From Escherichia coli (GTDB taxonomy: Bacteria; Pseudomonadota; Gammaproteobacteria; Enterobacterales; Enterobacteriaceae), in assembly GCF_041248615.1 (NCBI RefSeq), contig NZ_CP158426.1: a DNA stretch of 64,000 nt; one strand, 5' to 3'. This document shows positions 2,790 to 49,094 of the stretch, piece by piece. The notes under the pieces are model-generated. The model made no database searches, was not told the origin of the DNA, and saw only the letters and a program-made list of their open reading frames with translations. Positions within the stretch are counted from its first letter, which is position 1. Every line of letters starts with the position of its first letter. The translations under genes were made by a program, and so were the position numbers.

Positions 2790-3155
2790 GTCGACAGGGA
2801 GTCAGACAACGAAGTGAACATCAGGATGATGACACTTCTGAAGGACACACCAGGATGGTGTTTCAGGGAAAGGCTTCTGGATGAAGCGAAGAGGATGACG
2901 CAGGACGCGTTAAAGGACACCTCCAGGATGGAGAATGAGAACCGGTCAGGATGATTCGGTGGGTCAGGAAGGCCAGGGACACTTCAGGATGAAGTATCAC
3001 ATCGGGGTGGTGTGAGCAGGAAGCAATAGTTCAGGATGAACGATTGGCCGCAAGGCCAGAGGAAAAGTTGTCAAGGATGAGCAGGGAGCAACAAAAGTAG
3101 CTGGAATGCTGCGAAACGAACCGGGAGCACTGTGAATACAGTGCTCCCTTTTTTT
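2790..3155 (+). ncRNA. csrB: CsrB small RNA (CsrA-sequestering), 5' end approximate
   Basis: About 365 nt with many repeated CAGGATG / AGGA(U)G GGA motifs; ends in hairpin 3123-3148 plus T7 run 3149-3155; located between syd and yqcC. Confidence 0.85.
3123..3155 (+). terminator. Intrinsic terminator of csrB
   Basis: 11-bp stem GGGAGCACTGT/ACAGTGCTCCC, loop GAAT, followed by TTTTTTT. Confidence 0.8.
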
Positions 3156-3200
3156 ATTCCTGCTATCCTTCGCGGCAGTTTTTCTTATTGAGGTTGCTTT

Positions 3201-20974: not shown

Positions 20975-21267
20975 TATAAATGTCCCATTAAAGCTGGATA
21001 AATAAATTGACGGCGGCATCGGTAATTTGAGATTCGTTATAATTAAAAACGAACACAGAAAAAATAAGTATAATTTTGGTGAATGTTTTTGACATGATTA
21101 AATCCCTTTACTTTATTTATTTCTGACATAATACGTTACTCCCTTTTATTATTAACGATCTGTTTCTCATTTTTCTTTAAACCTGCCTGTAACAGAATGT
21201 TAATAAGACATGATTGTTGTGGCAGGATCTGCAATAATTAACAATTATCCACTTCACAGAGAATGCT

Positions 21268-21939
21268 ATGCAGTACCCGATTAACGAGATGTTCCAGACC
21301 CTGCAAGGTGAGGGTTACTTTACCGGCGTCCCCGCCATTTTTATTCGTTTACAGGGATGCCCGGTTGGCTGTGCCTGGTGCGACACCAAACACACCTGGG
21401 AAAAGCTTGAGGATCGGGAAGTCTCCCTTTTCAGCATTCTGGCGAAGACCAAAGAGAGTGATAAGTGGGGGGCGGCGAGCAGTGAAGACTTGCTGGCTGT
21501 CATTGGTCGCCAGGGATACACCGCGCGGCATGTGGTGATTACGGGTGGTGAGCCTTGCATTCATGATTTGCTGCCACTGACTGACCTGCTCGAAAAGAAC
21601 GGTTTTAGCTGCCAGATCGAAACCAGTGGTACTCATGAGGTACGCTGCACACCGAATACCTGGGTTACCGTATCGCCAAAGCTGAACATGCGCGGCGGCT
21701 ATGAAGTGTTGTCACAGGCACTGGAGCGAGCCAACGAAATCAAGCATCCAGTGGGACGCGTGCGTGATATTGAAGCACTGGATGAACTACTGGCAACACT
21801 GACCGATGATAAACCGCGAGTCATTGCGCTGCAGCCGATTAGCCAAAAGGAAGATGCTACTCGTTTATGTATCGATACGTGCATTGCGCGCAACTGGCGT
21901 TTGTCGATGCAAACACATAAATATTTAAATATTGCCTGA
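21268..21939 (+). CDS. queE: 7-carboxy-7-deazaguanine synthase QueE (radical SAM)
   Basis: 223-aa ORF with CxxxCxxC-type cysteine cluster (GCPVGCAWCDT). Confidence 0.85.
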   Translation: MQYPINEMFQTLQGEGYFTGVPAIFIRLQGCPVGCAWCDTKHTWEKLEDREVSLFSILAKTKESDKWGAASSEDLLAVIGRQGYTARHVVITGGEPCIHDLLPLTDLLEKNGFSCQIETSGTHEVRCTPNTWVTVSPKLNMRGGYEVLSQALERANEIKHPVGRVRDIEALDELLATLTDDKPRVIALQPISQKEDATRLCIDTCIARNWRLSMQTHKYLNIA

Positions 21940-22277
21940 TTAAACATTTATAAGCGTTATAAATGGGTGGAACCTGTAAAGACTTCTACTCATTTATATT
22001 CTTTGTCGCCTCTAAAAAACCTCCATTTTGCCCATCCTGGACTAATCATTATCATTTTCTACAAATTCTGTGGCGTTAATTTTTCGTTGGAGTGAAAATT
22101 ATTACGTCGGAGTTTGGTGGATTTTAGTCGGTATAGAATTACTTTAAATATTTGGCTTTTCAATCAATGAATTAAGTGCTCTTTAACATAATGGATGTGT
22201 TGTTTGTGTGTTTCTGTTAAGTTGGTAGATTGTGACTGACTTAAAAAATCAATAATTAATAATAGGTTATGTTTAGT

Positions 22278-22672
22278 GAGTTCCCCGCGCCAGCGGGGAT
22301 AAACCGGCTGATGCGGTTCTATCACCACCACAAATTATGAGTTCCCCGCGCCAGCGGGGATAAACCGCAAATACGCGCGAGTGGCTAACCTGGAATCATG
22401 AGTTCCCCGCGCCAGCGGGGATAAACCGGCGCGGACGATAATCAGGGGCAGGCAGGGCACGAGTTCCCCGCGCCAGCGGGGATAAACCGGAAATCCAATA
22501 TTAACGTGGTGTTTTCAAAACGAGTTCCCCGCGCCAGCGGGGATAAACCGCGTTTAGCTCCGCAATGCTGGATATCACTGATGAGTTCCCCGCGTCAGCG
22601 GGGATAAACCGTATGGGAAACAGTAGCAACGGGCACACTGGCGGAGTTCCCCGCGCCAGCGGGGATAAACCA
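22278..22672 (+). CRISPR. Orphan type I-E CRISPR array (CRISPR-II / 2.1): 7 repeats, 6 spacers of 32 bp, leader on the left
   Basis: 29-bp repeat GAGTTCCCCGCGCCAGCGGGGATAAACCG at 61-bp period; repeat 6 has the GCGTCAG variant; last repeat ends ..AAACCA; AT-rich leader with GTTGGTAGATTGT at 22221-22233. Confidence 0.95.
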
Positions 22673-23140
22673 CCATATAACCCGTAATCTCTTTCTAAAG
22701 TTTTTATATTAGCAGTACTCGTAATAAGCAACATATCCACGTAACACCTCATGTTCAAAATAGCTCTCCATATATGAGAAGTTCACAATTATCGATACAA
22801 AAAATCAAATTTAATTAAAGTGTTAGTTGTATAATACTTAAATCATTAAGAAATTATCATATATTATTTTTTTAATATTGAATTGATGTTTGTTAGTTTT
22901 TTCTTTAGGATAATAGATTGTTTTTTAAGCTTATTATTCATTGATTAAGTAATAAATCTGGAAATTTGTCTTTGTTTTGAGGCTAATGAGTGGTTTTACA
23001 TAACCGTCTCTATAGACTGTTGATGAATAGTTCTTATGAATAAAGATATCCAGTTCATACTTTAAATGAAAATTGATAAAGTACGGTTTGCGTTGTCTTT
23101 TATTCTAAGGACATCGAGTGTAGTTAATATTCCTTGTAAC

Positions 23141-23265
23141 AACAGGGATAAACCGAACTAGTTAAAGTTTTTATTATGTTCCCTGCATCAGCGGGGATAA
23201 ACCGGACTTGTTATCATTTTTTAAGTTGTCGAACTTATGTTCCCCACGTCAGCGGGGATAACCAT
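23141..23265 (+). CRISPR. Degenerate CRISPR remnant (CRISPR 2.2-2.3-like): partial repeat, two degenerate repeats, one 32-bp spacer
   Basis: ..AACAGGGATAAACCG (23141-23155); ATGTTCCCTGCATCAGCGGGGATAAACCG (23176-23204); 32-bp spacer; ATGTTCCCCACGTCAGCGGGGATAACCA (23237-23264). Confidence 0.6.
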
Positions 23266-23310
23266 TCAGGTATGTTCAGGCCGGGCAGTTTCCCGCCCGG
23301 CCTTCCTCAC

Positions 23311-24789
23311 TTACGCATTCGACCAGCTCTGGATCGAATCCGCATTCCCCAATTCACCATGCATCACTTCATACGATTTTTTCAGGATCACATCAGTGTG
23401 CTTGGTTAGGTCTTTGAAAATGCCTTTATTCATCGCGTCGTAGCGTTTGGCGTTGCTCTCAACAGGCATAAAGATATCTTTCACGCGAACCATTTTGTCG
23501 ACAGCCGTTGCGTAATCCGGGTATAGCCCCAGACCTACCGCCGTATTAATCGCTGCCCCCAGACTTGCACAACCATTAATGGCGTTACGGCGTGCCGGAA
23601 GGTTGAACACGTCGGCAAAAATCTGCATAAACAGATCGCTGTTCGAACCGCCGCCAGTAATGATCACATGCTTTGCAAAGTGATTCATTTCATTACACAT
23701 ATTGTCGTAATTGTTCTTCAGCGTCAGCGCCACGCTTTCCAGTATCGAACGATATATCCATGCGTAATCCATGCTGGAATCAAAGCCGATCATAATCCCG
23801 CGTTTGTACGGTTCCCACGGATTGGTCAGCCAGTCCAGCACCGTCATCAGACCATTACAGCCAGGCGGCACACAAGACGCTTTTTTGTTGAGTAAATCTT
23901 CCGGTGAAAGATCCTGTGCTTTGGCATCCTGAATTAACGACTCGCCTAACATGTCGCGCAGCCAGCTCACTGTCCACATGCCTTTGCGGATACCGTAACC
24001 TTCATACAGCAATGTTTGCGGAATAGAAGACATAATCGGCCAGTACGCTACCGGATCTTTCGGCAGTGCTTTGCCGTTCATCATCAACGCGATGTAAGTG
24101 CCAAGAGAAATTACCGCAGTTTCATCATCCAGTAACCCGGCTCCCAGTGCTTCTACCGGTTTATCACTGGTGGTACAAACAACCGGCAGCCCAGCCGGGA
24201 AATGTGTCGCCAGCGCGGCTTGACGAGTGATATGCCCAAGAACAGTGCCCGGCATTTGCACATCAAACAGCATATGACGGGGGATATTAAACTTCTCCAT
24301 GACTGCGGCATCTTCACTCCATGCCCAGGTCTTATAATCCACCGGCCACTGACCAAAATAGTTGGCGATATTGTCTTTAAACTCGCCGGTTAAGCGATGC
24401 GTCAGATAACCCGAAAAAGAGGTGACATATGCCACGTCAGGATTCGTATGTTCGTAAGGGCGTGTAACGCGTGCATCCTGCCAGCTAATCAACGGCGCAG
24501 CTGGCGTGCCATCGGCTTTCAATAACGCACGGCAGCAACGGATGGATCCCAGACCAATACCGACAATATCTTCTTTATTTCCGGCAAACTGACTCATCAA
24601 ATCGTGACCGGCAAAGCATAATGATGCCCATAAATCGTCGTCAGGATGTTCTGCGGTATCGGCATCTGGCGTGTGCATCGGCTGCAATAAGCCTTTGCCT
24701 TCGCAAACCACATTACCTTCCAGATCGTACATCACCACTTTTGTGCTCTGACTTCCACCATCAATCCCTATGATGTATTTTTTCGACAT
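23311..24789 (-). CDS. ygcE: FGGY-family carbohydrate kinase YgcE
   Basis: 492-aa ORF with N-terminal IGIDGGSQSTK kinase motif. Confidence 0.8.
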   Translation of the reverse strand: MSKKYIIGIDGGSQSTKVVMYDLEGNVVCEGKGLLQPMHTPDADTAEHPDDDLWASLCFAGHDLMSQFAGNKEDIVGIGLGSIRCCRALLKADGTPAAPLISWQDARVTRPYEHTNPDVAYVTSFSGYLTHRLTGEFKDNIANYFGQWPVDYKTWAWSEDAAVMEKFNIPRHMLFDVQMPGTVLGHITRQAALATHFPAGLPVVCTTSDKPVEALGAGLLDDETAVISLGTYIALMMNGKALPKDPVAYWPIMSSIPQTLLYEGYGIRKGMWTVSWLRDMLGESLIQDAKAQDLSPEDLLNKKASCVPPGCNGLMTVLDWLTNPWEPYKRGIMIGFDSSMDYAWIYRSILESVALTLKNNYDNMCNEMNHFAKHVIITGGGSNSDLFMQIFADVFNLPARRNAINGCASLGAAINTAVGLGLYPDYATAVDKMVRVKDIFMPVESNAKRYDAMNKGIFKDLTKHTDVILKKSYEVMHGELGNADSIQSWSNA

Positions 24790-39161: not shown

Positions 39162-39369
39162 GCGAGCAGCATTCCTGATTTTAAACGTGAACGCCGCTGG
39201 AAGAATTATCAGGTATAGAATGGCGTTGGGTGCTTGAGGCTGTCTGGCGTTAAGCATTCGCGAGGTTCCAGATGGACAAAAGCCCCAGGCGATATTTCTA
39301 TCAACCTGAGGCCAGCGTTCGAACCTAAGCAATTCGAATGTTAGTCTCTTCTTTGCAGGGAGGCAAGAC

Positions 39370-39522
39370 ATGCTGACAAAATATGCCCTTGTGGCAATCA
39401 TCGTACTGTGTTGTACAGTACTGGGATTCACGCTGATGGTAGGCGACTCGTTGTGTGAGTTGAGTATCAGAGAACGTGGTATGGAGTTTAAGGCAGTTCT
39501 CGCTTACGAATCGAAGAAGTAG
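39370..39522 (+). CDS. Hok/Gef-family small membrane toxin (50 aa), HokE-like; not in ORF track because shorter than 60 aa
   Basis: [50 protein letters not shown]: hydrophobic N-terminal helix, conserved Cys, Hok signature ..LCE..R...E..A.LAYE; mRNA-like 5' GGGUGCUUGAGGC and 3' GCACCC plus T-run. Confidence 0.7.
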
Positions 39523-39716: not shown

Positions 39717-42416
39717 ATGCGTAAATATCCTTTAAGTTTACTGAAGGATAAAAATATTGTGACTTTTTTTGATTTCTGGGGAAAAACCCGACGCGGCGAG
39801 AAAGACGGGGGCGACGACTATCACCTTCTTTGCTGGCATTCGCTGGATGTAGCCGCGATGGGCTATTTAATGGTTAAAAGCAATTGCTTCGGACTGGCTG
39901 ACTATTTTCGTCAATTAGAGATTTCTGACAAGGAACAGGCGGCTCAATTTTTCGCCTGGTTGTTGTGCTGGCACGATACTGGTAAATTTGCCCGCTCATT
40001 TCAGCAACTTTACCTGCACCCGAAACTCAGGGTTCCGGAAGGTGCTAGAAAAAATTACGAAAAAATCTCTCATTCAACGCTGGGCTACTGGTTGTGGCAT
40101 CATTATTTAAGTGAATGTCAGGAGTTACTTCCTTCCTCTTCACTCTCTCCCCGCAAACTTACACGTGTAATAGCGATGTGGATGCCCATAACTACCGGGC
40201 ATCATGGTCGCCCGCCTGACCGTATTGATGAACTGGATAATTTTCTGCCTGAAGACAAAGCTGCCGCGCGAGATTTTCTTCTTGAAATCAAACCACTGTT
40301 TCCGCTCATAGAGATCCCCGCATTCTGGGATGATGATGAGGGCATTGAACTTATAAAACACCTTTCCTGGTATATCTCTGCAACCGTCGTGCTCGCAGAC
40401 TGGACGGGTTCGTCAACGCGATTTTTTCCACGCGTCGCACACCCAATGGATATTAAAGGTTACTGGCAGAAAACTTTAGTTCAGGCTCAAAACGCCTTAA
40501 CCGTCTTTCCTCTAAAAGCAAAAGTCGCGCCTTTCACCGGAATTAATACGCTGTTTCCTTTTATTGAGAATCCGACACCGTTACAGCAAAAGGTGCTGGA
40601 TCTGGATATCAGCCAGCCAGGGCCACAGTTATTTATTCTGGAAGATGTGACTGGCGCAGGTAAAACGGAAGCGGCGCTTATCCTGGCGCACAGGTTGATG
40701 GCTGCGGGTAAAGCGCAGAGTTTGTTTTTTGGCCTGCCAACAATGGCAACGGCCAATGCCATGTACGATCGACTGGTCAAAACCTGGCTTGCTTTCTATT
40801 CGCCAGAGTCCCGCCCCAGCCTGGTGCTGGCACACAGTGCCCGAACATTAATGGACCGCTTTAATGAATCACTCTGGTCCGGTGATTTAGTCGGGTCAGA
40901 AGAACCGGATGAACAAACGTTCAGTCAGGGATGTGCGGCCTGGTTTGCCGACAGTAACAAGAAGGCGCTACTGGCTGAAATTGGCGTCGGCACGCTGGAT
41001 CAGGCGATGATGGCGGTGATGCCGTTCAAACATAATAATGTGCGGCTTCTGGGACTGAGTAACAAAATCCTGCTGGCTGATGAGATCCATGCCTGTGACG
41101 CTTACATGTCATGCATTCTTGAAGGGCTGATCGAGCGGCAGGCGCGTGGCGGAAACAGCGTCATTTTGCTTTCTGCCACGTTATCTCAACAGCAGTGCGA
41201 CAAACTCGTTGCTGCCTTTGCGCGTGGTACAGAGGGCCAGCAAGAAGCTCCGTTCCTGGAAAAGGATGATTACCCCTGGCTGACGCACGTTACGAAATCC
41301 GATGTGCATTCACACCGGGTAGCGACGCGCAAAGACGTTGAGCGTAGCGTGAGCGTGGGTTGGCTTCATAGCGAACAAGAATGTATTGCGCGTATCGAAT
41401 CGGCAGTAAGTCAGGGGAAATGCATCGCCTGGATCCGGAATTCTGTCGATGACGCTATTAAGGTTTATCGTCAGTTGCTTGCCCGCGGCGTCATTCCTGC
41501 TTCCAGCCTTTCTCTTTTTCATAGCCGCTTTGCTTTTAGCGATCGCCAGCGAATTGAAACGGAAACGCTGGCACGCTTCGGTAAAAGTTGTAGTTTACAG
41601 AGATCATCACAAGTCATTGTTTGTACACAAGTAATTGAACAAAGTGTGGATATTGACCTGGACGAAATGATCTCCGACCTGGCCCCTGTTGATTTGCTGA
41701 TCCAGCGAGCGGGGCGATTACAGCGGCATATCCGCGATATTAATGGTCAGTTAAAGCGTGACGGAAAAGACGAGCGTTCTCCTCCTGAATTGCTGATTCT
41801 GGCCCCCGTCTGGGACGACTCTCCGGGTGATGAATGGTTTGGCAGAGCCATGCGTAACAGTGCATATGTCTACCCCGATCATGGGCGAATCTGGCTGACG
41901 CAGCGTGTGCTGCGTCAGCAAGGCGCTATTCAGATGCCACACTCAGCCCGGCTTCTGATTGAATCAGTCTACGGTGAGGACGTGGTAATGGCGGAAGGGT
42001 TTGCCCGCAGCGAGCAGGAGCAAGTGGGCAAATATTACTGCGATCGCGCAATGGCTAAAAAGTTTGTCCTGAACTTCAAGCCTGGCTATGCCGCCAATAT
42101 CAACGATTACCTTCCGGAAAAGCTGTCGACACGTCTGGCGGAGGAGTCTGTTTCCCTGTGGCTGGCTACCTGTATTGCCAGTGTGGTGAAGCCTTATGCC
42201 AACGGTGCTCACGCATGGGAAATGAGCGTTGTCAGAGTGCGTCGAAGCTGGTGGAAAAAACATCGGGATGAGTTTTCTTTACTGGAAGGGGAAGCGTTCA
42301 GGCAGTGGTGCATTGAACAGCGGAAAGATCCGGAGATGGCAAACGTGATTTTAGTTACCGATGACGAAAGTTGCGGGTATTCGGCTATGGAAGGATTGAC
42401 TGGCAAGGTTGGTTGA
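39717..42416 (+). CDS. cas3: Type I-E Cas3 helicase-nuclease (HD plus DEAD/DEAH helicase), variant not of K-12 type
   Basis: 899-aa ORF with Walker A LEDVTGAGKTEA and DEIH-like motif; alternative GTG start at 39759 with AAGGA 10 nt upstream. Confidence 0.85.
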   Translation: MRKYPLSLLKDKNIVTFFDFWGKTRRGEKDGGDDYHLLCWHSLDVAAMGYLMVKSNCFGLADYFRQLEISDKEQAAQFFAWLLCWHDTGKFARSFQQLYLHPKLRVPEGARKNYEKISHSTLGYWLWHHYLSECQELLPSSSLSPRKLTRVIAMWMPITTGHHGRPPDRIDELDNFLPEDKAAARDFLLEIKPLFPLIEIPAFWDDDEGIELIKHLSWYISATVVLADWTGSSTRFFPRVAHPMDIKGYWQKTLVQAQNALTVFPLKAKVAPFTGINTLFPFIENPTPLQQKVLDLDISQPGPQLFILEDVTGAGKTEAALILAHRLMAAGKAQSLFFGLPTMATANAMYDRLVKTWLAFYSPESRPSLVLAHSARTLMDRFNESLWSGDLVGSEEPDEQTFSQGCAAWFADSNKKALLAEIGVGTLDQAMMAVMPFKHNNVRLLGLSNKILLADEIHACDAYMSCILEGLIERQARGGNSVILLSATLSQQQCDKLVAAFARGTEGQQEAPFLEKDDYPWLTHVTKSDVHSHRVATRKDVERSVSVGWLHSEQECIARIESAVSQGKCIAWIRNSVDDAIKVYRQLLARGVIPASSLSLFHSRFAFSDRQRIETETLARFGKSCSLQRSSQVIVCTQVIEQSVDIDLDEMISDLAPVDLLIQRAGRLQRHIRDINGQLKRDGKDERSPPELLILAPVWDDSPGDEWFGRAMRNSAYVYPDHGRIWLTQRVLRQQGAIQMPHSARLLIESVYGEDVVMAEGFARSEQEQVGKYYCDRAMAKKFVLNFKPGYAANINDYLPEKLSTRLAEESVSLWLATCIASVVKPYANGAHAWEMSVVRVRRSWWKKHRDEFSLLEGEAFRQWCIEQRKDPEMANVILVTDDESCGYSAMEGLTGKVG

Positions 42417-42513
42417 GATGCCTGCGACAGGGCTCTCTGAATAGTTGATACACCGAAAAGGATGGAATGATGGACAACCGACCTAGGATGGTCTTTTTTA
42501 CGAGAGGATGCGT

Positions 42514-44076
42514 ATGAACTCGTTTTCACTTCTGACAACCCCGTGGTTGCCCGTTCGTTATAAAGACGGAACGACAGGCAAACTGGCGCCTGTCGATCTG
42601 GCGGATGAAAATGTTGTCGATATTGCTGCGCCACGGGCAGATCTCCAGGGAGCGGCATGGCAGTTTTTGCTGGGGCTACTACAAACCAGCTTTGCGCCAA
42701 AAGATCATCGTCGTTGGGATGATATCTGGGAAGACGGACTGGAATCTGAAAAGCTACGGGAAGCATTGCTGTCCTTAGAACACGCTTTCCAGTTTGGGCC
42801 AGATTCCCCTTCATTTATGCAGGATTTCGAGGCGCTCACAGGAGATAAAGTTCAGGTCGCTTCGCTACTGCCTGAGATTCCCGGCGCTCAAACAACGAAG
42901 TTTAATAAAGACCACTTTATCAAGCGTGGTGTAACGGAATACCTGTGCCCACATTGTTCTGCGTTAGCTCTGTTCTCCCTACAGTTAAATGCGCCGTCAG
43001 GTGGTAAAGGCTACCGCACCGGTTTACGCGGCGGTGGGCCGATGACCACTCTGATTGAATTACAGGAATATCAGGGCAATCAACAAACGCCCTTGTGGCG
43101 CAAACTGTGGCTCAATGTGATGCCGCAGGACGAAGCCGACTTACCGCTACCCAAAAAATTTGACGATCTGGTTTTCCCCTGGCTTGGCCCGACGCGTACC
43201 AGCGAACTGGCCGGTGCGGTGGTAACCGATGATCAGGTTAATAAACTCCAGGCGTACTGGGGAATGCCGCGGCGTATTCGTATTGATTTTAATACCACGA
43301 CAGTCGGCAACTGCGATATTTGCGGCGAGCAGAACGACGCGCTCCTGAGCCTGATGACGACCAAAAATTACGGCGCGAATTATGCCATGTGGCAGCATCC
43401 CTTAACGCCTTACCGTGTACCCCTTAAAGAGGGCGGCGAGTTTTACTCGGTCAAACCACAACCAGGCGGTTTAATCTGGCGCGACTGGTTAGGCCTTATC
43501 GAAACGGGTAAATCAGAAAACAATACGGAACTTCCCGCGCTGGTGGTGAAACTCTTTAATGCCAGCAGTCTCAAGCAGGCAAAAGTGGGCCTGTGGGGAT
43601 TTGGTTATGATTTTGACAACATGAAAGCGCGCTGTTGGTACGAACACCATTTTCCGCTGCTGCTCGATAAAAAAGAAGGCCAGATACCGAAGCTGCGGCT
43701 GGCTGCGCAAACGGCTTCACGGATTCTGAGTCTGTTACGGAGTGCATTGAAAGAAGCGTGGTTCTCCGATCCAAAAGGTGCACGGGGTGATTTCAGTTTT
43801 GTGGATATCGACTTCTGGAACAAAACTCAGCATCGCTTCCTGAGGTTAGTGCGCCACATTGAAGAAGGTCAGGATGCGGATGAATTACTCAGCAAATGGC
43901 AAAAGGAAATTTGGTTATTCGCGCGTCAGGATTTTGACGAGCGTGTCTTCACCAATCCATATGAGCCCGTTGATTTGAAACGCGTCATGACCGCGCGCAA
44001 GAAATATTTTACAACATCGGCGGAGAAGCAAAATGCTAAAGCCGCCAGGGAGAAAAAGCAGGAGGCTGCTGAATGA
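42514..44076 (+). CDS. casA: Cascade large subunit Cse1 (CasA)
   Basis: ORF 42508-44076; second ATG 42514 has better spacing from GAGAGG; about 520 aa; position after cas3. Confidence 0.8.
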   Translation: MNSFSLLTTPWLPVRYKDGTTGKLAPVDLADENVVDIAAPRADLQGAAWQFLLGLLQTSFAPKDHRRWDDIWEDGLESEKLREALLSLEHAFQFGPDSPSFMQDFEALTGDKVQVASLLPEIPGAQTTKFNKDHFIKRGVTEYLCPHCSALALFSLQLNAPSGGKGYRTGLRGGGPMTTLIELQEYQGNQQTPLWRKLWLNVMPQDEADLPLPKKFDDLVFPWLGPTRTSELAGAVVTDDQVNKLQAYWGMPRRIRIDFNTTTVGNCDICGEQNDALLSLMTTKNYGANYAMWQHPLTPYRVPLKEGGEFYSVKPQPGGLIWRDWLGLIETGKSENNTELPALVVKLFNASSLKQAKVGLWGFGYDFDNMKARCWYEHHFPLLLDKKEGQIPKLRLAAQTASRILSLLRSALKEAWFSDPKGARGDFSFVDIDFWNKTQHRFLRLVRHIEEGQDADELLSKWQKEIWLFARQDFDERVFTNPYEPVDLKRVMTARKKYFTTSAEKQNAKAAREKKQEAAE

Positions 44077-44609
44077 GTATTGTAAAAGAGGAGCACAAAG
44101 CCACGCTGCGTAAATGGCACGAAGAGTTGCAGGAAAAACGCGGCAATCGTGCCAGTCTGCGGCGTAGCACAACGGTTAATGATGTTTGTCTGTCAGAAGG
44201 GTTTCGTTCTCTGCTGATGCAGACCCACACTTTGTGGAAAATTGAAGCACAAGAGTGGCGTTTTACCGCACTGGCGCTGGTCGCCGCAGTTAGCGCCAAT
44301 GTTAAAGCTATTGATGAACGGCAGCCTTTTGCCGCGCAGCTGGCGGCGGTAATGTCGGAGGGGCGTTTTACTCGCCTGTCGGCAGTAAAAACGCCTGATG
44401 ATTTACTGCGTCAGTTACGTCGCGCGGTCAAATTATTAAATGGTTCCGTCAATCTTATCTCTTTGGCAGAAGATATTTTCCGCTGGTGCCAGGAGAGCGA
44501 CGACCTGCTCAATCATCACCGCCGCCAGCAGCGGCCAACAGAATTTATCCGTATCCGCTGGGCGCTGGAATATTACCAGGCTGGCGACGCCGATAACGAA
44601 CAAAATTAA
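44073..44609 (+). CDS. casB: Cascade small subunit Cse2 (CasB)
   Basis: 178-aa ORF overlapping casA stop by 4 bp. Confidence 0.8.
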   Translation: MSIVKEEHKATLRKWHEELQEKRGNRASLRRSTTVNDVCLSEGFRSLLMQTHTLWKIEAQEWRFTALALVAAVSANVKAIDERQPFAAQLAAVMSEGRFTRLSAVKTPDDLLRQLRRAVKLLNGSVNLISLAEDIFRWCQESDDLLNHHRRQQRPTEFIRIRWALEYYQAGDADNEQN

Positions 44610-44623
44610 TAAAGGACTATCTC

Positions 44624-45679
44624 ATGACGACATTTATTCAGCTTCATTTGTTAACCGCTTACCCTGCTGCCAACCTTAACCGTGATGACACCGGTGCGCC
44701 AAAAACTGTGGTACTGGGTGGAGCAACGCGTCTGCGCGTTTCCTCACAAAGTCTGAAACGTGCGTGGCGCACTTCTGCACTTTTTGAACAGGCACTGGCG
44801 GGCCATATTGGTATTCGCAGTGGGCGTATTGCGCGTGAGGCGGCAACTATCCTGATTGAGAAAGGCATCGAAGAGAAAAAAGCCATCGAATGGGCGGCAA
44901 AAATTGCGGATTATCTTGGGAAAGCTAAAAACGACAAAAAACCAAAAGATCCGCTCACTAACGCCGAAACTGAACAGCTAGTCCATATCAGCCCGGCAGA
45001 ATTTGACGCCGTAAAAGCGCTGGCCCATCAACTGGCCGAAGAAAAGCGCGCGCCAAAAGAGGAAGATCTCGCTTTGTTACGTAAAGATCGCATGGCGGTA
45101 GATATCGCTATGTTTGGTCGTATGCTGGCGAATAAACCCGAATTTAATGTTGAAGCCGCCTGCCAGGTCGCGCATGCATTTGGTGTCAGTGAAACGATTG
45201 TCGAAGATGATTTTTTCACCGCCGTTGATGATTTGCGCCAGGCTTCTGAAGATGCCGGTGCCGGGCATCTTGGTGAAACCGGATTCGGTTCTGCGCTGTT
45301 CTACACCTATATCTGCATCGATAAAGATCTGCTGGTCGAAAACCTCGGCGGTGACGAAGCGTTAGCTAATCAGACCTTGCGCGCCTTTACGGAAGCCGCA
45401 CTTAAAGTCTCCCCAACCGGCAAACAGAACAGCTTTGCCAGCCGTGCCTACGCCTCCTGGGCGCTGGCAGAAAAAGGCACTGAACAACCACGCTCTCTGG
45501 CGGCGGCTTTCTATGAACCCATTAATGGCACCCGGCAGTTAGATGTGGCGGTGCAGCGTATTACAACGCTTCGCGAAAATATGAATACGGTCTATGAACA
45601 GAAGACCGAATGCGCAAGCTTTGACGTGATGAACAAACAGGGAAGCATGAAGGACGTGCTGGACTTTATCTGCGCGTAA
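44624..45679 (+). CDS. casC: Cascade backbone subunit Cas7e (CasC)
   Basis: 351-aa ORF MTTFIQLHLLTAYPAANLNRDDTGAPK... Confidence 0.85.
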   Translation: MTTFIQLHLLTAYPAANLNRDDTGAPKTVVLGGATRLRVSSQSLKRAWRTSALFEQALAGHIGIRSGRIAREAATILIEKGIEEKKAIEWAAKIADYLGKAKNDKKPKDPLTNAETEQLVHISPAEFDAVKALAHQLAEEKRAPKEEDLALLRKDRMAVDIAMFGRMLANKPEFNVEAACQVAHAFGVSETIVEDDFFTAVDDLRQASEDAGAGHLGETGFGSALFYTYICIDKDLLVENLGGDEALANQTLRAFTEAALKVSPTGKQNSFASRAYASWALAEKGTEQPRSLAAAFYEPINGTRQLDVAVQRITTLRENMNTVYEQKTECASFDVMNKQGSMKDVLDFICA

Positions 45680-45689
45680 GGGGCGGCTA

Positions 45690-46436
45690 ATGAGCCAATA
45701 TTTGATTTTTCAGCTTCATGGGCCAATGGCATCCTGGGGCGTCGATGCCCCCGGCGAAGTGCGTCATACCCATGAACTGCCTTCGCGCTCAGCATTGCTG
45801 GGGCTGCTGGCTGCCGGGGTAGGGATTCGGCGTGATGATACCGAACGATTAAACGCGTTTAACCGCCACTATTCACTGGTGGTTTGCGCCAGCCGTAACC
45901 CGCGCTGGGCACGGGATTATCACACGGTCCAGATGCCAAAAGAGGTGCGTAAAGCGCGTTATTTCAGCCGTCGCGAAGAGTTGAGCGCCCCTGATCTTCT
46001 GAGCGCGATTATCTCCCGGCGCGACTACTACACCGATGCCTGGTGGATGGTGGCGGTGGCAACAACCCCCGATGCGCCTTACAGGCTTGAACAGTTGCAG
46101 GACGGTTTACGTCATCCGGTTTTTCCGCTTTATCTGGGGCGAAAAAGTCATCCGCTGGCGTTACCACTTGCGCCGTTACTGCTCGAAGGCAACGCGTCTG
46201 ATGTCTTACGTAACGCATACCAACAGTATCAGGATAGTTTCCGCGAACTGAAAGTCTCACTCCCGAAACTTCAGGATGAATGCTGGTGGGAAGGGGAACA
46301 CGACGGCCTGGTCGCGAGCAAAATATTACGTCGCCGGGATGTTCCTTTAAATCGTCAGCAGTGGCTGTTTGGGGAACGCACCATCAATCAGGGGCCGTGG
46401 CTCAGCAAGGAGGAACCATGTACCTCTCAAGAATAA
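45690..46436 (+). CDS. casD: Cascade subunit Cas5e (CasD)
   Basis: 248-aa ORF; operon position. Confidence 0.8.
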   Translation: MSQYLIFQLHGPMASWGVDAPGEVRHTHELPSRSALLGLLAAGVGIRRDDTERLNAFNRHYSLVVCASRNPRWARDYHTVQMPKEVRKARYFSRREELSAPDLLSAIISRRDYYTDAWWMVAVATTPDAPYRLEQLQDGLRHPVFPLYLGRKSHPLALPLAPLLLEGNASDVLRNAYQQYQDSFRELKVSLPKLQDECWWEGEHDGLVASKILRRRDVPLNRQQWLFGERTINQGPWLSKEEPCTSQE

Positions 46437-47064
46437 CCTTACATACCGGCCAGCTTTCGCCTGCGCAGTTGCTGCATCTGGTGGATCGCGGTGAATATGT
46501 AATGCATCAGTGGCTGTGGGATCTTTTTCCTGGCGGCAAAGAAAGGCAATTTCTTTATCGTCGGGAAGAACTCCAGGGGGCGTTTCGCTTTTTTGTCCTG
46601 TCGCAGGAACGCCCGGCGGAAAGTGATATTTTCACCATCGAATGCCGACCATTTGCGCCAGAGTTGCGTACCGGACAATCCCTTTGTTTCAACCTGCGGG
46701 CGAATCCAACAATTTGTAAAGCGGGCAAACGCCACGACTTGCTGATGGAGGCGAAACGGCAGGTGAGGGGGCAGGTGGAAGGAAGTGATGTCTGGTTGCA
46801 TCAACAACAGGCGGCGCTGGACTGGCTGGCAGCGCAGGGGGAAAGAAGCGGTTTTACACTACTGGATACCTCGGTCGATGCCTACCGACAACAGCAACTG
46901 CGGCGGGAAAACTCCCGGCAACTGATCCAGTTCAGTAGCGTGGATTATACGGGGATGCTTACGGTCACCGATCCTGGGTTATTTCTGCAACGTCTGAGCC
47001 AGGGGTATGGCAAAAGCCGCGCGTTCGGCTGTGGTCTGATGCTGATCAAACCCGGAGCAGAGGC

Positions 47065-47068
<4 letters not shown>
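46418..47068 (+). CDS. casE: CRISPR repeat endoribonuclease Cas6e (CasE)
   Basis: ORF 46280-47068; probable start MYLSRITLHTGQ at 46418 (216 aa), overlapping casD end; C-terminal G-rich loop GYGKSRAFGCG. Confidence 0.8.
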
Positions 47069-48278
<1,210 letters not shown>

Positions 48279-48374
48279 GTTATCTGTTCTTTAAAAATAA
48301 GGAAATGTTTTAATTTAGTTGGTAGATTGTTGATGCGGAATAAATTTTTTTAAAAACAGTTATGTATGCTTAGT

Positions 48375-49074
48375 GTGTTCCCCGCGTCAGCGGGGATAAA
48401 CCGGACTCAGTTTTTCCCTGCTGACCCTCCGAAGGGTGTTCCCCGCGTCAGCGGGGATAAACCGCCATGCCGCGCCAGCTCTGCGAAACAGCCCGCGTGT
48501 TCCCCGCGTCAGCGGGGATAAACCGATCCAAAGATAGTCGCCCCGATTGCCAAATTGGTGTTCCCCGCGTCAGCGGGGATAAACCGACGGTATTGTTCAG
48601 ATCCTGGCTTGCCAACAGGTGTTCCCCGCGTCAGCGGGGATAAACCGGCGGCACTAACGTGATAATCACGATCAATTATGTGTTCCCCGCGTCAGCGGGG
48701 ATAAACCGTGACGGTCCGAAAAAAGTTGGCTGAAGAAATTGTGTTCCCCGCGTCAGCGGGGATAAACCGGTTATTGCGTTTTCCTCACCTGCGGCGAGTC
48801 CGTGTTCCCCGCGTCAGCGGGGATAAACCGCATTCCGTGCAGCGGTCTGAATAATTGCCGCGGTGTTCCCCGCGTCAGCGGGGATAAATCGAGTAACGAC
48901 GAAAAAATACAGGCACGGGCCAGGTGTTCCCCGCGTCAGCGGGGATAAACCGATCCCCGCAGGTATCGCGCAGCTATCGATCGAGTGTTCCCCGCGTCAG
49001 CGGGGATAAACCGGACGCACTGGATGCGATGATGGACATCACTTGGAGTTCCCCGCCCCTGCGGTAGAACTCCC
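48375..49074 (+). CRISPR. Type I-E CRISPR array (CRISPR-I) adjacent to cas2: 12 repeats (last degenerate), 11 spacers of 32 bp
   Basis: 29-bp repeat GTGTTCCCCGCGTCAGCGGGGATAAACCG at 61-bp period; repeat 9 ends ..AAATCG; terminal repeat GAGTTCCCCGCCCCTGCGGTAGAACTCCC; leader 48279-48374 with GTTGGTAGATTGT at 48319-48331. Confidence 0.95.
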
Positions 49075-49094
49075 AGCTCTCATTTTCAAACCCA

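Follow-up and report, generated by a model that had tools for sequence, protein, structure and literature searches.

The CRISPR-II locus of Escherichia coli isolate NRZ14408: array anatomy, an inherited repeat variant and the adjacent CRISPR2.2 element

A CRISPR array situated between queE and ygcE, 17 kb upstream of the start of cas3, and containing a single repeat with the loop sequence that is otherwise found throughout the CRISPR-I array, raises the question of whether it is an abandoned array into which a foreign repeat has been exchanged or an ordinary part of the resident type I-E system. The locus was analysed within a 64-kb stretch of DNA (the window) that matches record NZ_LT599825.1, the chromosome of E. 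coli isolate NRZ14408, at 100%, the window position being the record position minus 1,152,000. We conclude, with a probability of roughly 0.9, that the CRISPR-II locus in this isolate is the standard second type I-E array of E. coli (CRISPR2.3) together with the adjoining three-repeat CRISPR2.2. All of this, from the locus and its leader to the repeat variants and the adjacent mini-array, is already known and has been in the E. coli literature since 2010, and nothing in the locus is new apart from the strain-specific set of spacers.

Anatomy of the CRISPR2.3 array and its leader

The CRISPR2.3 array (22278-22672, + strand) is composed of seven repeats of 29 nt and six spacers of 32 nt, and the same interval is already annotated as a CRISPR, by a direct-repeat feature, in RefSeq record NZ_LT599825.1. 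The repeats start at 22278, 22339, 22400, 22461, 22522, 22583 and 22644, giving a 61-bp spacing six times, and the locus is flanked upstream by queE (21268-21939, + strand) and downstream by ygcE (23311-24789, - strand). A preliminary description of this DNA, which had placed the array at these positions between these two genes, is borne out in coordinates, spacing and flanks, and the six 32-bp spacers that it listed match exactly; all six are mutually unrelated. With the canonical repeat GAGTTCCCCGCGCCAGCGGGGATAAACCG as query, seven copies were found in CRISPR2.3 and none are expected by chance, as judged from shuffled sequences. The type I-E pattern GWGTTCCCCGCGYCAGCGGGGATAAACCG also gave seven matches with 0-1 mismatch, against a chance expectation of nil. 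An Rfam scan of the window reported CsrB and sok alone, with no CRISPR family at the gathering threshold, which short repeats rarely reach.

Repeats 1-5 are identical to GAGTTCCCCGCGCCAGCGGGGATAAACCG, and the terminal repeat 7 (22644-22672, + strand) ends in CCA, an ending that is also present in K-12. Hence the earlier assignment of six repeats to the GAG..GCGCCAG type is exact for repeats 1-5, but the CCA end of repeat 7 had gone unmentioned. According to PMC3737337 (which cites Swarts, Datsenko and Goren 2012), the final G of each internal repeat is PAM-derived and belongs to the incoming spacer, which explains why the terminal repeat alone has a different end, its A being flanking DNA. Functionally, the array is made up of 28-nt duplicons and of 33-nt spacers whose first base is the PAM-derived G. 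The CRISPR2.3 repeat is predicted to fold into a 7-bp stem with a tetraloop (-15.1 kcal/mol), followed by the 8-nt handle ATAAACCG.

The closest reference is K-12 CRISPR-II, the ygcE-ygcF/queE array in the nomenclature of Diez-Villasenor 2010, which occupies the same position between queE and ygcE. The two loci have in common a leader that is 93% identical over the last 100 nt, the 61-bp periodicity, a terminal GAG..CCA repeat and a 503-bp gap to CRISPR2.2. However, all six spacers differ, and the internal repeats of K-12 CRISPR-II are of the GTG form (CRISPR-A) whereas those of the array here are of the GAG form (CRISPR-T). GAG..GCGCCAG is the repeat of K-12 CRISPR-I, while K-12 CRISPR-II has GTG..GCGCCAG, with GAG..CCA in the terminal repeat alone. 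The description of the repeats as K-12-type therefore holds for K-12 CRISPR-I but not for its positional counterpart, K-12 CRISPR-II. Since GAG is used in 10 of 10 other CRISPR-II arrays that were read, K-12 aside, it is what arrays of this spacer group usually have.

Leader2.3 (22100-22277, + strand) is AT-rich, with a GC content of 0.31 across 21940-22277, and its 93% identity to the K-12 leader agrees with the similarity of leader2.3 across strains that has already been reported (PMC3903273). The 14-mer AGTTGGTAGATTGT lies at 22220-22233 (+ strand), from -58 to -45 relative to the first repeat, and recurs at the same offset in the leader of CRISPR-I (48317-48330); the window contains no further copy. 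The statement that the two leaders have a sequence in common is confirmed, although the motif is one base longer than was first given. The four leaders of both arrays in NRZ14408 and K-12 also have in common TTTAA..A.AA.GGA..TGTT upstream and TTAG at the junction with the array. A candidate IHF site, AATCAATAATTAA (22247-22259, + strand; -31 to -19), proposed on the basis of its position, has one mismatch to WATCAANNNNTTR.

These elements can be compared with the mapped architecture of type I-E leaders, in which the Cas1-Cas2 binding region CBS2 extends over -46 to -57 and the integrase anchoring site over -50 to -53 (Yoganand et al. 2016, PMC5224486). According to the same study, type I-E leaders in which IHF is used have conserved the anchoring site, and the IHF site adjoins the first repeat (PMC5224486). 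The leader of CRISPR2.3 is alike in having a conserved block from -58 to -45 over CBS2 and the anchoring site and an IHF-like site from -31 to -19. It differs in reading GTAG at -53 to -50, where the K-12 CRISPR-I leader has GTGG, and the published experiments concern the CRISPR2.1 leader of BL21-AI/K-12. Because the position of the common motif coincides with the mapped CBS2 and anchoring site, the motif most probably represents conserved functional leader anatomy, and we see in it no sign of exchange between the arrays. Leader2.3 is described as carrying the array promoter (PMC3903273, PMC3737337) and spacer-integration sites; in our promoter and terminator scan it gave consensus-level matches only, no more than expected from shuffled sequence.

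Origin of the loop variant in repeat 6

Repeat 6 (22583-22611, + strand) carries a C13 to T change at 22595 that converts GCGCCAG to GCGTCAG. Position 13 falls within the tetraloop (GCCA) of the hairpin formed by the repeat, and the C and T forms have the same predicted fold and energy (-15.1 kcal/mol). The species consensus is CGGTTTATCCCCGCTGACGCGGGGAACWC, with the variants CRISPR-A and CRISPR-T (Diez-Villasenor et al. 2013, PMC3737337). Repeat 6 is the reverse complement, GWGTTCCCCGCGTCAGCGGGGATAAACCG, of this published E. coli type-2 consensus with W=T (CRISPR-T), and the CRISPR-I repeats are the consensus with W=A (CRISPR-A), whereas repeats 1-5 and 7 differ from it in having C rather than T at position 13, like K-12 repeats. 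As had been noted, GCGTCAG is found throughout CRISPR-I (11 of 11 repeats are GTG..GCGTCAG), and the preliminary description took the hybrid repeat to imply exchange between the two arrays. We find instead an old, inherited variant near the trailer end of the array, which a single C-to-T transition in the tetraloop explains.

The evidence comes from the inheritance of the variant. With a 93-nt query comprising spacer 5, repeat 6 and spacer 6, the T form was found to follow spacer 5 immediately in 29 complete genomes; in these, spacer 5 and the T repeat are 100% identical over 60 nt, and eight of the loci were read directly. The 28 genomes other than NRZ14408 are from pigs, chickens and humans on three continents, and the metagenome contig OASQ01002221.1 has a seven-spacer version of the array with the same T variant after spacer 5. 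As each new repeat is copied from the one next to the leader (PMC3737337), and repeats 1-5 have C, the T must have arisen in repeat 6 after the addition of spacer 5. It is a change in an old trailer-end repeat, predicted to be neutral for folding, that has been passed on together with that spacer.

The comparison of spacer order with other E. coli CRISPR-II arrays, which the preliminary description had put forward as a check, was made on eight loci and revealed shared trailer spacers and varied leader-proximal ones. Isolate 362 (Madrid) has the same array with one extra internal spacer, AGGTATATG..., which is also present in OASQ01002221.1. Strain 135 (chicken, China) and AF39 (UK) have spacers 5 and 6 in common with NRZ14408 and differ in their leader-proximal spacers. 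In pig ETEC, O139:H1 and ST2747 strains the array ends with spacer 5 followed by GAGTTCCCCGCGTCAGCGGGGATAAACCA (GAG..GCGTCAG..CCA), which is a recombinant of repeat 6 (T) and repeat 7 (CCA) left after the loss of spacer 6. We conclude that the array grows at its leader end and loses units when its repeats recombine: NRZ14408 has lost one internal unit that is still present in isolate 362 and OASQ01002221.1, and the loss of spacer 6 from other lineages has left the R6/R7 recombinant terminal repeat. Given that the T variant is common to 29 genomes, the metagenome contig and these recombinants, it is both real and old.

Exchange, by which repeat 6 would have obtained its T through conversion or recombination with CRISPR-I or with CRISPR2.2, 0.5 kb downstream, is unlikely. 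Potential donors do exist, as T is present in 11 of 11 CRISPR-I repeats and at the same position in units 2 and 3 of CRISPR2.2; repeat recombination within the array clearly occurs, as seen in the R6/R7 recombinant terminal repeats, and recombination has been documented for E. coli arrays (PMC4524480, PMC3903273). However, the GTG marker of the CRISPR-I repeats, only 11 nt upstream of the variant base, is missing from repeat 6 and was thus not co-transferred, and any exchanged tract must fit within ~26 nt of homology bounded by unrelated spacers. Strain K_EC180 has kept the T variant in CRISPR-II despite a CRISPR-I array in which 6 of 7 repeats are C-type (GCGCCAG). Moreover, position 13 is a site of recurrent variation in many arrays, and in a set of 117 distinct repeat instances nearly all of the variation falls at position 2 (46 variants) and position 13 (35). 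Two C-type repeats occur within the otherwise T-type CRISPR-I arrays of strains 135 and 362, GCGTTAG and GCATCAG repeats are found in the K-12 CRISPR-I trailer, and the last CRISPR2.2 unit has T at the loop position in NRZ14408 and K-12, whereas strains 7/2 and C1 have C there. The more parsimonious reading is a single transition, and one event inherited by 29 genomes suffices. The other possibility, a sequencing or assembly error in NRZ14408, which the preliminary description had named as something that would weaken its inference, has nothing in its favour beyond the single-base difference and was rejected with near certainty since 28 other independently sequenced genomes and OASQ01002221.1 carry the same T.

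Relation to the cas operon and spacer content

A type I-E cas operon (cas3, casA, casB, cas7e, cas5e, cas6e, cas1e and cas2e; 39717-48278, + strand) is present in the window with intact ORFs and no pseudogene flags in RefSeq. From the end of CRISPR2.3 it is 17.0 kb to the start of cas3, 24.4 kb to cas1 and 25.7 kb to CRISPR-I, so that the distance of 24 kb to the cas genes given earlier fits cas1 but not cas3 and is approximate. CRISPR-I (CRISPR2.1; 48375-49013, + strand) has 11 GTG..GCGTCAG repeats, all of which are GTGTTCCCCGCGTCAGCGGGGATAAACCG except one with AAATCG, and a degenerate 12th repeat lies at about 49046. The sok match from Rfam (39228-39385) marks a hok/sok element that precedes the operon, and the operon is the E1 variant with hok/sok in front. 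This element is found in all arrangements except the K-12-like E2 variant and marks the non-K-12 (E1) type (PMC3903273).

In the published layout, CRISPR-I comprises the cas-E genes together with CRISPR2.1 between iap and cysH (Almendros et al., PMC3903273), and CRISPR-II comprises CRISPR2.2 and CRISPR2.3, 0.5 kb apart, between ygcE and ygcF, with leaders adjoining CRISPR2.1 and CRISPR2.3 (PMC3903273). CRISPR-II is placed 24 kb from CRISPR I (Garcia-Gutierrez et al., PMC4489801) and its array is treated as the second array of the same I-E system (PMC3903273, PMC4489801). Because a complete type I-E cas operon is present 17 kb downstream and this layout matches, CRISPR2.3 is the second array of the resident system and not the orphan that it was first called.

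From the literature on such arrays we infer how the locus would work. Leader2.3 would drive transcription of CRISPR2.3 on the + strand. The transcript would be cleaved at every repeat hairpin by Cas6e, whose gene lies 24 kb away, and the guide RNAs released in this way would be taken up by Cascade, which would in turn recruit Cas3. New spacers would be inserted at the leader-repeat junction by Cas1-Cas2 together with bending of the leader by IHF, and the AGTTGGTAGATTGT block at -58 to -45 may serve as the upstream anchor in this reaction.

To search for spacer targets, the six spacers were joined by runs of N and used as a blastn query with a word size of 11. There was no match at E<=1 among 50,697 phage records, and among 72,556 plasmid records the only match was to the CRISPR array of a mis-filed E. 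coli chromosome. Among 5426 E. coli genomes, 324 matched, each at a single place, and the matches listed are all in CRISPR features except for one record without an annotated feature; hence there is no self-target among these matches, those in the source genome included. The BLAST check against phages, plasmids and the genome itself that had been suggested earlier has thereby been carried out, and it found no target. A scan of IMG/VR with a 26-nt pattern per spacer (N at positions 6, 12, 18 and 24) gave 0 matches for 6 of 6 spacers. An additional scan with spacer 1 covered GTDB genomes and JGI metagenomes and gave a match to the same array in a metagenome. A second match of spacer 1, to a class-V aminotransferase-like ORF in a Pseudotabrizicola MAG, was rejected as a target and judged to be due to chance (26/32 identical, with CCG instead of an AAG PAM). 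The absence of spacer targets fits a slow or inactive system. The type I-E system of K-12 is silenced by H-NS.

The spacers differ greatly in their distribution. Of 5426 complete genomes, only NRZ14408 and isolate 362 have spacers 1-4 at 100% identity; these spacers also occur in one metagenome contig. Spacer 6 is found in four genomes and spacer 5 in 324, ~297 of which have one mismatch at spacer position 18. In two of these ~297 loci that were read, a different terminal repeat, GCACCAGCGGGAAT..CCA, follows spacer 5.

A true orphan or decaying array, that is, a fossil that is served by no cas genes and is neither expressed nor extended, would agree with the lack of a detectable target for any of the six spacers, with the finding that only losses and no gains distinguish NRZ14408 from its closest relatives, and with the doubts raised in the literature about the relevance of the I-E system as a barrier in E. 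coli (PMC4489801). We nevertheless regard it as quite improbable. Against it stand a complete cas operon, the identity of repeats 1-5 to one another and intact motifs in the leader. In addition, strains with common trailer spacers differ in their leader-proximal spacers, which indicates past acquisition at CRISPR2.3, and the CRISPR-II leader has been reported to support acquisition (PMC3903273, PMC3737337).

CRISPR2.2 and the value of the locus as a marker

CRISPR2.3 is followed by an AT-rich region of 0.45 kb (22673-23126; GC 0.26) that has no recognised feature and no match in an Rfam scan, and then by CRISPR2.2 (23127-23265, + strand), the gap between the two amounting to 454-503 bp. CRISPR2.2 is defined as three repeats and two invariable spacers (PMC4489801). 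In the window it consists of three degenerate repeats on the + strand, unit 1 (23127-23155), unit 2 (23176-23204) and unit 3 (23237-23265), which are 19/29, 24/29 and 22/29 identical to the consensus, respectively, and of two fixed spacers between them, also on the + strand, at 23156-23175 (20 nt) and 23205-23236 (32 nt). The degenerate repeat-spacer-repeat remnant initially placed at 23141-23265 is thus real but larger, with three units from 23127. Over 46 nt, the two stretches of unit plus spacer are 76% alike, which points to an old duplication of the unit. The K-12 copy of CRISPR2.2 has the same make-up of three degenerate repeats with a 20-nt and a 32-nt spacer and is 98.6% identical; units 1 and 3 show point differences alone, located in loop or stem, unit 3 for example having CCCCACGTCAG here but CCCCGCGTCAG in K-12.

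Of mild interest is the much stronger conservation of CRISPR2.2 relative to its flanks, which diverge by 4-9%. Compared with its 98.6% identity to K-12, the adjacent AT-rich DNA is 91% identical and queE and ygcE are 96-97% identical. Among 11 strains, 4 of 139 nt segregate in CRISPR2.2 versus 51 of 454 nt in the AT-rich region (Fisher p=0.002), and there are no segregating sites in 23141-23245. The same is seen across ~4150 genomes, in which identity is typically 98-99% for CRISPR2.2 and 92-93% for the 139 nt immediately upstream. Of 4062 genomes, 4048 have a 100% identical copy of the 32-nt spacer, and about three in four E. coli genomes carry CRISPR2.2. The literature consulted already notes the invariance of CRISPR2.2 but gives no cause for it and assigns it no function.

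On the basis of this conservation, CRISPR2.2 might be a maintained element rather than a decaying fossil, for example one that yields a fixed crRNA-like RNA or acts as a cis-element, although we consider this doubtful. Units 2 and 3 of K-12 CRISPR2.2 keep a usable hairpin and the ATAAACCG handle, and unit 3 in the window has a stem mismatch (G10 to A). When searched against phages, the CRISPR2.2 spacer gave chance-level matches only, all with E>=0.3, and no target. Compensatory changes in unit 1 were considered as a sign of structural selection and rejected, as the stem would survive in ~16% of transition-only decay patterns, which is not significant.

The locus matters little beyond strain typing. 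In that context the spacer set of CRISPR2.3 is a useful lineage marker, with spacer 5, present in 324 genomes, as an old anchor, and the single-nucleotide difference in repeat 6 neatly illustrates that unit deletions can be traced from a repeat SNP, through R6/R7 recombinant terminal repeats.

Probable unit loss in CRISPR2.3 and units missing from CRISPR-I

CRISPR2.3, the CRISPR-II array at 22278-22672, carries seven repeats and six spacers in the window. At the junction of spacers 3 and 4 (22461-22489), isolate 362 (locus L002) and the metagenome contig OASQ01002221.1 (L018) have an extra unit with the spacer AGGTATATGAAATTGAAGAAAGCTGCCCCATC, and most likely one 61-bp unit has been lost from the window strain at this position. 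In loci L006-L009 (pig ETEC, ST2747 and K_EC180) the terminal repeat, at about 1533-1561, is GAGTTCCCCGCGTCAGCGGGGATAAACCA, a composite that has the repeat 6 T and, like repeat 7, ends in CCA. This terminal repeat is the footprint of the loss of spacer 6 through recombination between repeats.

CRISPR-I was compared with the arrays of isolate 362, which has 15 spacers, and of strain 135, which has 14; several of their internal and trailer-side units are missing from the array in the window strain (48375-49075). The spacer beginning ACGGTATTG is retained in the window and is absent from isolate 362. Repeat 9 (48863-48891) contains AAATCG, as it does in isolate 362, and a degenerate 12th repeat follows repeat 11 at about 49046.

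Spacer 1 and the neighbouring genes

Spacer 1 of CRISPR2.3 matches a Pseudotabrizicola MAG (L017, 1475-1500) at 26 of 32 nt, within an ORF of 415 aa that resembles class-V aminotransferases. The triplet beside the match is CCG instead of AAG, the expected number of such matches is about 0.03, and the match is probably due to chance.

A sok antitoxin RNA was identified at 39228-39385 (Rfam, 111.7 bits). Together with a Hok/Gef gene it lies a short distance upstream of cas3, an arrangement reported in non-K-12 (cas-E1) strains (PMC3903273). The small gene upstream of queE (20988-21129) corresponds to K-12 yqcG, which encodes a cell envelope stress response protein; its annotation as a frameshifted pseudogene recurs in several of the other strains compared. 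The window also contains the CsrB small RNA gene (2799-3158; Rfam, 382.9 bits), which has no relation to CRISPR-II.

Internal similarity and conservation of CRISPR2.2

The two unit-plus-spacer stretches of CRISPR2.2, the degenerate array at 23127-23265, are 76% alike over 46 nt at a spacing of 49 (23127-23221), and this likeness suggests that the mini-array grew by unit duplication rather than by two separate acquisitions. The most degenerate unit (23127-23155) retains a 7-bp hairpin fold (−7.9 kcal/mol) in which C-G pairs are replaced by U-A and U-G; this retention is not significant, since by our own count ∼16% of transition-only decay patterns keep the hairpin.

Among the 11 strains compared, segregating sites number 4 in the 139 nt of CRISPR2.2, none of them at 23141-23245, and 51 in the 454 nt upstream. 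In 4048 of 4062 genomes the 32-nt spacer of CRISPR2.2 has an identical sequence. With diverged DNA on both sides, CRISPR2.2 is an island of conservation.
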